37,101 bases of DNA, from assembly GCA_016200345.1 (NCBI GenBank), contig JACQEX010000022.1, positions 1 to 37,101 of the forward strand, given 5' to 3'. The DNA is from Nitrospinota bacterium. GTDB lineage: Bacteria > Nitrospinota_A > UBA7883 > JACRGQ01. Below, piece after piece: positions 1,677 through 37,101 of the stretch (within the stretch, counting starts at the first letter, position 1; each line of letters opens with the position of its first letter). A program made the translations under genes and the position numbers. The notes below the pieces were generated by a model, which saw nothing but the letters and a program-made list of their open reading frames with translations, was not told where the DNA came from and made no database searches.

Positions 1677-1677
1677 A

Positions 1678-1734
1678 GCAGTAAACGACCATATACTTCC
1701 GCCATGCAAGTCAGAGCGTGCATCATTGCCACCA
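1678..1734 (-). repeat. inverted dispersed copy (about 88% identity) of a segment of the tandem array at the 3' end of the window (36966-37022)
   Basis: Reverse complement of 1678-1734 aligns with 36966-37022 (tggtggcaatgatgcacgctctgacttgcatggcggaagtatatggtcgtttactgc versus tagtggcaataatacacactctgacttggatggcggaagtacatggtcgtttactgc). Confidence 0.7.
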
Positions 1735-1736
1735 AT

Positions 1737-1787
1737 GGTAGGCACGGCAATCCTGCCGTGCAGGGCGACAGGATTGTCGCCCCTACC
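1737..1787. repeat. compound hairpin element: outer stem GGTAGG/CCTACC enclosing two perfect tetraloop hairpins (CACGGCA-ATCC-TGCCGTG and GGGCGACA-GGAT-TGTCGCCC)
   Basis: Perfect inverted repeats read directly from the sequence. The 12-mer GGTAGGCACGGC also occurs in the spacer units of the 3' tandem array. Sits between the convergent sensor and permease genes. Confidence 0.6.
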
Positions 1788-1803
1788 GGATTGGGAAAAT
1801 ACA

Positions 1804-19659: not shown

Positions 19660-19683
19660 GTTATCTCCAGTATTGGCAGTGCT

Positions 19684-19728
19684 TCATTTTGAATTGCGGA
19701 TAGCGTCAAACGGGCGGATTGCTTCGCT
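19684..19728 (+). repeat. copy A of an approx. 45-bp direct repeat (cattttgaattgcggata...gattgcttcgcta) in the glyS-marR intergenic region
   Basis: About 85% identical to copy B at 19887-19929. Confidence 0.7.
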
Positions 19729-19730
19729 AC

Positions 19731-19776
19731 GCTCGCAATGACAGTTACTTGTCATTGCGAGACCGCTTTCAGCGGT
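19731..19776. repeat. perfect 12-bp-arm palindrome CTCGCAATGACA-gttact-TGTCATTGCGAG, immediately followed by a second hairpin GACCGC-tttca-GCGGTC
   Basis: Read directly from the sequence. No adjacent T-run, so not a typical intrinsic terminator. Confidence 0.7.
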
Positions 19777-19886
19777 CGCGGCAATCTGCTCTAGATCCAA
19801 ACTGAAGCACTACCCCAGTTTTTCACCCTTGCAAGTTTAACCATCTGCCGCCCCATAGGCAAGCCAAATGAAAGGGGGGTTGTGGG

Positions 19887-19929
19887 TCATTTTGAATTGT
19901 GGATAACCTGAAACGCAGATTGCTTCGCT
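19887..19929 (+). repeat. copy B of the approx. 45-bp direct repeat
   Basis: Matches 19684-19728 with substitutions clustered in the centre of the unit. Confidence 0.7.
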
Positions 19930-19971
19930 ATTTCGGCAACCGATATCAAGTTGCAAGAAAACTCTCTCTGA

Positions 19972-20001
19972 CTTGAAATGGGCGAACAACCAAACGTATA
20001 C
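19972..20001 (+). promoter_or_regulatory. putative sigma70 promoter: TTGAAA, 18-bp spacer, TATACT, reading toward the marR-like gene and RND operon
   Basis: Good -35/-10 hexamers with an acceptable spacer. An 18-codon ORF with an AGGAA Shine-Dalgarno follows at 20019-20075. Confidence 0.35.
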
Positions 20002-20213
20002 TGCAAAAGGTAGGAAATAATGACAAGCATTATATTTTTGCATTCTCGGAGAAACGTTCCCTTGGGCTGGAAATAACGAGGGGCAATTTTGGCGTTGCTT
20101 CCCCCAATAAATCGGCGGTTGAAAAACAGGCTAATTATTAGTATCTGCGCCCGCTGGGGCTTTCGCAGGCCAAATGGCGCGTCCTTCTGAACATATCCAA
20201 ACACAAGGGGGCG

Positions 20214-27020: not shown

Positions 27021-27055
27021 CCCGTCCCGCCCGGCCTCGAACAACGGGGATTCAA

Positions 27056-27147
27056 CCACGAAAAGCGCGAAATTCACGAAAGGTTTGGTTTAACGTTTTT
27101 CCAGAACCCAATCTTTTTCTTTTCGTGCCCTTTCGTGTTTTTCGTGG
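27056..27147. repeat. left MTase-flanking element: approx. 91-bp imperfect palindrome with three (A/G)CGAAA heptads on the 5' arm and three TTTCGTG on the 3' arm at 9-10 bp spacing
   Basis: CCACGAAAAGCGCGAAATTCACGAAAGG ... CTTTTCGTGCCCTTTCGTGTTTTTCGTGG. Direct-repeat partner at 28070-28160. Confidence 0.75.
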
Positions 27148-27151
27148 TTAG

Positions 27152-28048
27152 TCACTTTTTTATATAGGCGAGGAGGGATTTGGCGACGTGCTCGGCGAGT
27201 TTCACGGGGACGGCGTTTCCGATTATCTGCTCCACGTTCGTCGCGCCCCCGACAAGCTTGAAACTTTTCGGGAACGTCTGGACCATGCTTCTTTCCCTCG
27301 TGGTCAGCGGGCGGAGTCCGTGGATTTTCGCGGCGTCTCCCGGATGGCCGGGGTAGCCCTTTGGCACGGGCCTGTTTACGCCGCGCACCGTGGGGCTTGG
27401 CTCGTCCATTCCGAAAACGCCCCTTCTTGAATAGCTTCTCGGATGGCGGTAGTAATGCTCGACGCCGAGGCTCTTTCCAAAATAATCGCGCATGGTCGTC
27501 TTTTTTGTCGTCAGGCCGTCCGCGAGAAAACTTTCCAAGAATCCGTCCTTGGCGCCGACGGCTCCGATTACGAAAAGCCTTTTTCTTTTCTGCGGGACGC
27601 CGCAGTAGCTAGCGTCCAGAACTTTGGCGGTTATTCCGTAGCCGGATTTTGAAAAAACTTTTCGCGCCTCCGCGAGGGTTTTGGAGTTTAGGGCGAGCGG
27701 GACGTTTTCCATTACGAAATATTGGGGATGAACCGTGCAAACAATCTCGGCGAAGGAGATGGTGAGGTCGGCCTTGCCGCGCGCCTCGTCCCTTTTTCCG
27801 GCGGACGAGAAATCTTGGCACGGCGGGCCGCCGATGATTATTTGCGGGTTGAATTTTTTTATTTCCGACGGCGAGTTTTTGTCCGAGAGGTCGCGCAGAA
27901 AGATCGGATGTCCGTGGAAATTGGCCGCGTACAAATCCACGGCCTTGTCCCAGCCGTCGTATGCGGCGACGATTTTACAGCCGGCGTTAGCAAAGCCAAG
28001 GGAAAGTCCGCCCCCCCCGGCGAACAGGTCAACCGTCCTTAACTCCAT
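27152..28048 (-). CDS. DNA (cytosine-5)-methyltransferase, Dcm-like, with no restriction-endonuclease partner
   Basis: Motif I DLFAGGGGLSLGF, motif IV GGPPCQDFSSAGKR, motif VI ENV. 298 aa. Confidence 0.9.
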   Translation of the reverse strand: MELRTVDLFAGGGGLSLGFANAGCKIVAAYDGWDKAVDLYAANFHGHPIFLRDLSDKNSPSEIKKFNPQIIIGGPPCQDFSSAGKRDEARGKADLTISFAEIVCTVHPQYFVMENVPLALNSKTLAEARKVFSKSGYGITAKVLDASYCGVPQKRKRLFVIGAVGAKDGFLESFLADGLTTKKTTMRDYFGKSLGVEHYYRHPRSYSRRGVFGMDEPSPTVRGVNRPVPKGYPGHPGDAAKIHGLRPLTTRERSMVQTFPKSFKLVGGATNVEQIIGNAVPVKLAEHVAKSLLAYIKK

Positions 28049-28069
28049 TGAAAATCCGGAAAAGAAAAA

Positions 28070-28160
28070 CCACGAAAATCACGAAAAGACGCGAAAGGGG
28101 AAAGTTTGGGTTTTGGCAAACGAAAAAACAATTCTTTCGTGAATTTCGTGTCTTTCGTGG
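28070..28160. repeat. right MTase-flanking element, same architecture and orientation as 27056-27147
   Basis: CCACGAAAATCACGAAAAGACGCGAAAGG ... CTTTCGTGAATTTCGTGTCTTTCGTGG. Confidence 0.75.
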
Positions 28161-28172
28161 TCGTCAAATTCG

Positions 28173-36069: not shown

Positions 36070-36101
36070 GGGTGCGGATAAATCCGCACCTACCATTTTT
36101 A
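36070..36101 (+). terminator. rho-independent terminator of rpoD (GGTGCGGAT-aaa-ATCCGCACC + TACCATTTTT)
   Basis: Perfect 9-bp GC-rich stem followed by a T-rich tract 14 nt after the rpoD stop. Confidence 0.7.
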
Positions 36102-36229: not shown

Positions 36230-36306
36230 GGGCCTATAGCTCAGTTGGTTAGAGCCCCCGGCTCATAACCGGGTTGTCCTAGGTTCAAGTCCTAGTGGGC
36301 CCACCA
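36230..36306 (+). tRNA. tRNA with CAT anticodon (elongator Met or lysidine-type Ile2; G1-C72 pair argues against initiator)
   Basis: 77-nt cloverleaf folded by hand: acceptor GGGCCTA/TGGGCCC, D-arm GCTC-AGTTGGTTA-GAGC, anticodon arm CCCGG-CTCATAA-CCGGG, T-arm CTAGG-TTCAAGT-CCTAG, CCA encoded. Confidence 0.85.
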
Positions 36307-36363
36307 AAATAAACAAAACTCCCCATTCGGGAGAGTTTTGCTTATTTTTGATGTAGGCCCGCT
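36299..36363 (+). repeat. 65-bp direct repeat copy 1, spanning the last 8 nt of the tRNA plus its terminator
   Basis: Identical at every base to 36498-36562. Confidence 0.9.
36315..36349 (+). terminator. tRNA intrinsic terminator (AAAACTCCCC-attc-GGGAGAGTTTT + GCTTATTTTT)
   Basis: Hairpin plus T-run 9 nt after the tRNA CCA end. Duplicated within the second 65-bp repeat. Confidence 0.7.
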
Positions 36364-36497: not shown

Positions 36498-36562
36498 GCC
36501 CACCAAAATAAACAAAACTCCCCATTCGGGAGAGTTTTGCTTATTTTTGATGTAGGCCCGCT
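36498..36562 (+). repeat. 65-bp direct repeat copy 2
   Basis: Perfect copy. The 134 bp between the copies contains two perfect hairpins (ATTCCGCAC-gtgat-GTGCGGAAT and GGGAACA-cga-TGTTCCC). Confidence 0.9.
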
Positions 36563-36573
36563 TTTGGCCGGTA

Positions 36574-37101
36574 CGCACCAAGTACACGCTAAAGCGTGTA
36601 CCCACCGGAAAAAGCAATTGGGTGGGTGCGGCCTTTTTTTTCTCCCGGTAGGCACGGCCTTTAGGCTGTGCTACATTGGCGCTTTCGCGGCAACGTACAG
36701 GTTAAAACCTGTACCCACCGGAGAATGCAATTTGGTTTGGTAGGCACGGGCTTTTTTTTCTCCCGGTAGGCACGGCCTTTAGGCTGTGCTACATTGCCGC
36801 TTTCGCGGCAACGTACAGGTTAAAACCTGTACCCACCGGAAAAAGCAATTTGGTGGGTGCGGGTTTTAACCTGTACACCTTCGCATTGGCGCTCCGCGGC
36901 AATGTACACACTAAAGTGTGTACCCACCGGAAAAAGCAATTTGGTGGGTGCGGGCTTCTCGGCAACCATCCTCTAGTGGCAATAATACACACTCTGACTT
37001 GGATGGCGGAAGTACATGGTCGTTTACTGCGGCCTGCACTCCTTCGCATTGGCGCTCCGCACAAATTAAAACCTAAAGCGTGTAACCACCCGAAAAAGCA
37101 A
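36574..37101 (+). repeat. tandem array (at least 5 units, periods 113/118/91/162 bp, truncated by the window end) of a composite multi-hairpin element; REP/BIME-like or a tandem small-RNA gene array
   Basis: Each unit has a 20-bp perfect palindrome with a TAAA loop whose stem covaries between copies (GTACACGC / GTACAGGT / GTACACAC), then CCCACC...GGTGGG and a T8 run. The spacer carries hairpins GCACGGCC-ttta-GGCTGTGC and TTGCCGC-tttc-GCGGCAA and a TGcTACATT extended -10-like motif. Confidence 0.8.

Follow-up and report, generated by a model that had tools for sequence, protein, structure and literature searches.

What fills the short gap between two convergent genes near one end of a Nitrospinota contig, and how is it related to the repeat array at the contig's other end? 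The window considered here is the whole stretch of 37,101 nucleotides analysed, and its host contig is an ordinary chromosome that carries efflux systems, a rib operon with nusB, ppdK, glyS, accA, kdtA and a dnaG-rpoD-tRNA-Met region. The gap measures exactly 127 nt (1677-1803), a length already given in the initial annotation and set by the open reading frame ends at 1676 and 1804. On its left lies a sensor gene (174-1676, + strand) whose product has HAMP and HATPase_c_2 domains according to Pfam, and on its right an ABC-2 permease gene (1804-2925, - strand; Pfam ABC2_membrane_3, E 1e-45), the final gene of an ABC-2/OEP/HlyD/TetR efflux cluster. The factual statements made earlier about this junction were all confirmed. 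The evidence given below indicates that the gap very likely holds a dimer of GTAG-tagged REPs together with a short low-copy repeat, the latter being probably a duplicated REP flank.

The first of these components is the 51-nt element located at 1737-1787, 16 nt from the permease stop codon. Its structure, GGTAGG-CACGGCA[ATCC]TGCCGTG-C-AGGGCGACA[GGAT]TGTCGCCC-CTACC, agrees with the original description of two hairpins enclosed by the ends GGTAGG and CCTACC, and each hairpin has 8 bp. Unit 1 (1737-1761, + strand) consists of the GGTAGG head followed by GCACGGCA[ATCC]TGCCGTGC, and unit 2 (1763-1787, - strand) is inverted, with the same head followed by GGGCGACA[ATCC]TGTCGCCC and a stem in which the differences from unit 1 are compensated. 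The second hairpin repeats the first in inverted orientation, 12 of 18 positions being identical, including the entire CAATCCTG core, and the dimer as a whole is 74.5% self-complementary. Each unit follows a 25-nt plan composed of GGTAGG, a stem arm of 7-8 nt, CA-ATCY-TG and the matching arm, forming an 8-bp stem with a 4-nt loop. The stem is rich in G+C and varies freely in sequence while its pairing is kept, and the loop region CA-ATCY-TG is conserved. The GTAG ends face outward and the spacer between the units is 1 nt, an inverted arrangement that is the usual architecture of REP dimers and is what Di Nocera et al. 2013 (PMC3733652) call an HH heterodimer.

GTAG-tagged REPs have been described as elements with an unpaired terminal GTAG, stems of 6-13 bp with complementary variants, and short loops (PMC3733652). 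They frequently form dimers, including an HH type with GTAG outward and partners sometimes only 1-5 bp apart, in which heterodimers are preferred, a preference that may guard against long perfect palindromes being cleaved; they occur between convergent or unidirectional ORFs near 3' ends or stop codons, and also in clusters that include duplicated flanking DNA (PMC3733652). The junction units fall within the dimensions of this class (a stem-loop of 20-40 bp, a stem of 6-13 bp and a short loop) and carry the GTAG/GTRG end: a 5' GGTAGG in the two junction units and in the + strand units of the 3' array, and GGTGGG in the - strand units of that array. The window dimer resembles the HH dimers whose spacer is 1-2 bp, for example Opitutus terrae GTAG-17 (PMC3733652), in its outward GTAG ends, its heterodimeric composition and the distance of 1-5 bp between partners. 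The same survey and the window units also agree in the G+C-rich stem of 6-9 bp with complementary variants and a short loop, in the location between convergent ORFs near their stops, and in the presence of clusters with duplicated flanking DNA. However, the window family has a longer head, GGTAGG, with ATT often in front of it, and either CA-ATCY-TG or C-TTTA-G as its loop core; moreover, Nitrospinota lies outside the host phyla listed in the survey. GTAG-tagged REPs typically exceed 100 copies per genome, and in this contig the family is known from local copies, nine units in 37 kb. The dimer can likewise be compared with the REPIN-RAYT systems (Bertels & Rainey 2011, PMC3116915; E. coli TnpA-REP/RayT, PMC3479197, PMC8266576), where two inverted REPs are capable of forming one long hairpin, as they are here, and where RAYTs recognise and cleave the GTAG head beside the hairpin foot, which is also present here. 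In contrast to those systems, the spacer of the window dimer is 1 nt, whereas Di Nocera et al. (PMC3733652) give 20-100 bp for the majority of REP dimers.

Related hairpins were sought throughout the window by a rule that required GGT[AG]GG followed immediately by any hairpin of at least 6 bp. Nine were found at three loci of the 37-kb contig, two at the junction, one after rpoD and six in the 3' array, so that 9 of 32 GGT[AG]GG heads (28%) run directly into such a hairpin, compared with 2.6% for random hexamers. The single REP unit (36072-36094, - strand) is composed of GGTAGG and GTGCGGAT[TT]ATCCGCAC and lies 16 nt past the rpoD stop. When this region (36070-36100) is read on the + strand, the unit is followed by ACCATTTTTA, a terminator-like arrangement ahead of tRNA-Met in which a T run comes after the hairpin (36070-36091), and from its sequence this REP looks as if it had been co-opted as an intrinsic terminator.

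The remaining six headed hairpins belong to a BIME-like cluster (36582-36928) that reaches the contig end, and have TTTA loops; partial units and small linker hairpins (ATTGCCGCTTTCGCGGCAAC) accompany them. They are located at 36582-36606 (-), 36647-36671 (+), 36695-36719 (-), 36765-36789 (+), 36813-36837 (-) and 36904-36928 (-), the orientations following the order - + - + - -, and the repeat period is 113-118 nt (86% matches). In its observed layout, the 3' "tandem array" is therefore a mosaic of alternating REP-like hairpins and small linker hairpins. E. coli BIMEs are alike in alternating REP units with short conserved linkers that contain small hairpins, but the unit and linker sequences of the array are unrelated to theirs, and the array ends where the contig does. 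Its loops are TTTA where the junction has ATCC, and the head is kept. Because the + strand array units keep this head and the same 5' stem arm as the junction, a 12-mer is common to both, as had been reported: GGTAGGCACGGC occurs exactly at 1737, 36647 and 36765, and with one mismatch at 36739, against 0.16 occurrences expected by chance. A CRISPR identity for the array was considered and rejected, since its "spacers" are themselves repeated, its units are palindromic and alternating, and Rfam gave no match to a CRISPR repeat family.

Two other repeated structures were observed in the contig. The segments 36299-36363 and 36498-36562 are 100% identical and 199 nt apart, each comprising the last 8 nt of tRNA-Met and 57 nt downstream, including a terminator-like hairpin (CTCCCCATTCGGGAG); several GTAGG-headed hairpins are found in the 134 nt between the copies, and the duplication may be an att-like scar of integration or excision at the tRNA. 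Separately, imperfect inverted repeats of ~95 nt (27055-27149 and 28068-28161, 72-81% complementary) directly flank an ORF for a C-5 cytosine DNA methylase (27152-28048, - strand), which with these inverted flanks has the appearance of a cassette or of a mobile orphan methylase.

The proposal that the array repeats belong to a dispersed family populating gene ends was borne out by other genomes. A scan of one genome per species with the pattern GGTAGGCACGGCNNNNNNGCYGTGC returned 24 hits, about 9 being expected by chance, and 11 of the 24 were situated on two groundwater Nitrospinota MAGs, JACQBU01 (7 contigs) and JAHFEK01 (4 contigs). These external loci were picked by a pattern derived from the element, so their units with the CACGGCA stem are present by construction. 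The same JACQBU01 and JAHFEK01 loci also contain further units outside the search pattern, with the stems GGAGGCA, TACACACA, TACAGGCA, CACGCACA, CACACACA and GGCGGGCA, in which the head and the CA-ATCY-TG (CAATYYTG) loop core are almost always unchanged. Such non-seed units number 17 in 49 kb in JACQBU, compared with about 4 in 95 kb in the non-Nitrospinota loci, and none was detected in the 25.6 kb of three more distant Nitrospinota loci. Most of the units fall between long ORFs, and several sit where two genes converge at their 3' ends, according to crude calls that took the longest ORFs only. The complete 51-nt dimer recurs at three of the external loci (L018 5093-5143, L008 641-691 and L015 3594-3643), identical to the window dimer at 45 of 51 positions and with the differences in one stem compensated, and larger REP clusters are present at L012 4817-5058 and L019 1574-1840. 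At the orthologous permease loci of relatives (70-82% amino-acid identity) the neighbouring genes differ and REPs are absent, and a filled site is not comparable there with an empty one.

Some external loci show other arrangements. REP dimers at L012 576-669 and L025 1466-1558 have spacers of 40-45 nt that hold the small hairpins TTGGCGCAACGCGCCAA and GGCCCnnnGGGCC, which resemble the linker hairpins of the window array (ATTGGCGCTTTCGCGGCAAC). In the MAG of Prevotella sp. SUG860 (Bacteroidota; L009 5098, L010 2255 and L030 7494), GGTAGGCACGGCATCCYTGCCGTGC units have an inverted partner ~31 nt upstream, and their head and stem nearly match those of the Nitrospinota units despite the unrelated phylum.

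The stems were then compared across 28 units taken by head and loop alone, with no pairing demanded. Two degenerate units were left out, identical rows were counted once, and 11 seed units have the CACGGCA stem by construction. In this set 96.7% of cells pair, and six of the eight base pairs have changed on both sides, the two loop-closing pairs being invariant. The covariation score was 0.707, compared with 0.178 ± 0.03 for shuffled alignments, and none of 500 shuffles reached the observed value; slid registers of the same alignment pair at most 48%. The sub-families are distinguished by stem changes that preserve the pairs.

The second component of the gap is a low-copy repeat of 55 nt (1678-1732, - strand), with the sensor stop codon 1 nt ahead of it. 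It matches the reverse complement of 36976-37030 at 50 of 55 positions (91%; blastn E 8e-16 within the window), slightly better than the 57 bp at 88% first described between junction and array. The array copy (36976-37030, + strand) lies between REP units, and in the alignment the ACC directly upstream of it (GGCAACC) falls opposite the CCTACC head of the junction. When one 4-nt gap is allowed, the homology spans 1678-1739 and 36965-37030, and the local alignment scores 92, versus a maximum of 31 in 200 shuffles. This extended homology reaches three bases into the REP head and ends in ...ACC in both good copies; at the junction this ACC closes the REP head (CCTACC), and in the array it follows GGCAACC. 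A divergent third copy, with its upstream flank, was found on the + strand at 19927-20004, in an intergenic position upstream of glyS (score 53 versus a shuffle maximum of 32).

The region upstream of glyS (19660-20020) is packed with small repeats, among them a 34-nt repeat (19679-19712 and 19882-19915, 82%) and palindromes of the ATTGCTTCGCTACGCTCGCAATGAC / GTCATTGCGAG type, next to the divergent copy just mentioned. These palindromes presumably resemble repeats that are common in many environmental bacteria.

The initial annotation had treated the spacer-like repeat and the array units as one family; this holds for the hairpins at the junction and in the array, but the segment itself is a separate, unstructured low-copy repeat. 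Its fold is no better than that of shuffled sequences (z 0 to +1), it has no match in Rfam, and no copy outside the window was detected in the fetched loci. Exact-pattern scans with a 23-mer taken from it gave no match in genome, metagenome or viral collections, and a scan of metagenomes with an array-unit pattern also gave none. A six-frame composite protein built from the junction and the array, compared with 5.8 billion proteins for spurious ORFs over other copies, returned no hits. Two functional candidates for the segment were rejected. In the sole open frame all five substitutions between the copies are non-synonymous, which excludes a coding role, and as a promoter (sigma-70 or sigma-54) it shows only a weak 9/12 match, with candidate -10/-12 positions that by inspection vary between copies. 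The 55-nt segment is probably flanking DNA that was duplicated together with a REP border as the cluster grew, its link to the spread of REPs resting on adjacency.

A bolder reading, to which only a small probability is assigned, is that a REP head and the adjacent 55-66 nt of unstructured DNA were copied together between the gene-end junction and the tRNA-proximal cluster, in either direction ('REP transduction'); if so, nearby 3'-UTR sequence would be taken along when REPs are processed in these Nitrospinota, seeding new low-copy repeats. The same small probability covers a second possibility, in which the family has an unusual reader. The invariant head and loop, set against hypervariable, compensated stems, would then point to a RAYT variant, or a non-RAYT protein, that recognises the loop.

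The adjacency of the 55-nt segment and the REP head in both good copies, the inverted termini of the dimer (GGTAGG/CCTACC) and the existence of the third, divergent copy at 19927-20004 could also be expected if the whole 127-nt filler, or the segment plus the dimer, were a composite MITE-like element moved by a classical DDE transposase. However, the 127 nt have no terminal inverted repeats, and the dimer has no target-site duplication, its flanks being CCAAT and GGATT, which are not direct repeats. Furthermore, the two parts are separable, as related MAGs have the dimer without the 55-nt segment, the array copy of the segment has no dimer, and the third copy has no neighbouring REP. A composite transposon of this kind is thus regarded as improbable, and a REP dimer beside a duplicated REP flank is preferred.

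The folding of the dimer bears on a further possibility, namely that the 51-nt element is a purpose-built RNA that evolved locally, either a bidirectional terminator or a three-way-junction regulator with kissing or switching loops, and not a mobile repeat. As DNA the dimer folds into a Y-shaped junction of two separate hairpins at -22 kcal/mol, with a z of about -7 and none of 200 shuffles equal to it, and this Y-shape is preferred over the long hairpin, in contrast to the REPIN-RAYT systems. As RNA, the + strand forms the Y-shape at -34.0 kcal/mol. The alternative folding that had been suggested is real, a long hairpin (CAAUCCUG with CAGGAUUG) being predicted at -31.4 kcal/mol, 2.6 above the + strand minimum, and on the - strand the long hairpin is itself the minimum-energy fold, at -33.5 kcal/mol. 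Comparative folding of the dimer copies with RNAalifold, proposed in the same annotation, gave the Y-shape as consensus. The strong fold on both strands, with two near-isoenergetic conformations, and the placement of the element exactly between two stop codons are what a dedicated RNA could show. Nevertheless, the same dimer and single units are found at many unrelated loci, in both orientations and in three MAGs. No Rfam family was recovered for the element (best E-value 1.1); searches at gathering and permissive thresholds matched the tRNA only. The complementarity of the ATCC and GGAT tetraloops, which had been read as allowing a kissing interaction, does not stand as a design, because the two hairpins are inverted copies of one another, and loops that complement each other are a by-product of that inverted duplication. 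Finally, a scan of 1677-1803 for a hairpin followed by a T run found none on either strand, so that the earlier suggestion of a bidirectional terminator is unlikely in its canonical intrinsic form. Taken at these values, a locally evolved regulatory RNA is considered very unlikely, and the element is better read as a dimer of mobile GTAG-tagged REPs.

The position of the repeats is also reflected in assembly behaviour. Two Logan assemblies of the same strain, SRR12113411 (L001) and SRR12113409 (L002), contain the permease gene at 99.8-99.9% identity, and both end at window position 1760, between the hairpins; the end of the window contig likewise falls inside the REP cluster. The shared break at 1760 is suggestive, since a repeat in a de Bruijn graph would be expected to end contigs in this way. 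That the likeness between junction and array is a one-off local duplication or a short-read MAG assembly artefact, with no repeat family behind it, is hardly credible even though the array stands at a contig end, where assemblies are least reliable, and the 23-mer is unmatched in three public collections, since the five substitutions between the two 55-nt copies indicate distinct loci, the hairpin family is found independently in MAGs from other studies, and these independent assemblies reproduce the junction up to 1760.

How the GTAG-tagged REPs reached these sites can be proposed from characterised REP/REPIN systems, by analogy with which the units would spread as single-stranded DNA hairpins. 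The likely agent would be a REP-associated tyrosine transposase (HUH/Y1) for which the GTAG head and the hairpin serve as recognition features, and copies would survive where harm is small, just downstream of stop codons. REPs of the GTAG type are thought to be mobilised by RAYT transposases that recognise GTAG and the hairpin (PMC2817692, PMC3479197, PMC8266576). In REPIN-RAYT systems the genome holds a cognate RAYT gene, usually flanked by the REPs. Neither the window nor ~75 kb of related Nitrospinota DNA, a small sample for genes that are usually single-copy, yielded a RAYT gene (Y1/HUH) by motif regular expressions, by Pfam searches of REP-flanking ORFs, or by phmmer and tblastn with E. 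coli RayT. A weak RAYT match at L027 (E 0.009) was rejected, as it lies in the antisense frame of another gene.

At the RNA level, each of the converging transcripts would carry a stable structure of ~-34 kcal/mol at its end. Enterobacterial REPs protect the 3' ends of mRNAs. A role of the window units in 3'-end protection and as a barrier to read-through is suggested by analogy with those REPs, following the survey of Di Nocera et al. (PMC3733652). By the same analogy, the structure would be expected to block 3'-5' exonucleases and to impede read-through into the antisense gene, without acting as a classical hairpin-plus-U-tract terminator. It is the stabiliser half of the earlier functional proposal that remains plausible, with the junction dimer serving as an mRNA 3'-end stabiliser and read-through barrier.

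GTAG-tagged REPs seem to be hitherto undescribed in the phylum Nitrospinota, and the repeat is otherwise of an ordinary kind of bacterial junk or regulatory DNA; a full-text literature search gave no paper joining Nitrospin* with REP, RAYT or REPIN. The finding of a REP dimer reveals no new mechanism, and extends the range of GTAG-tagged REPs to a phylum without a report in the searched literature. In practical terms, REP clusters and dimers explain where contigs of this MAG lineage break, both at the end of the window contig and at the ends of the Logan contigs, and in groundwater Nitrospinota genomes these short palindromes can be flagged as giving rise to mis-assembly and to spurious small ORFs. 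The clean covariation set obtained here, with its invariant head and loop and its free stems, could guide the search for the cognate transposase of the family.
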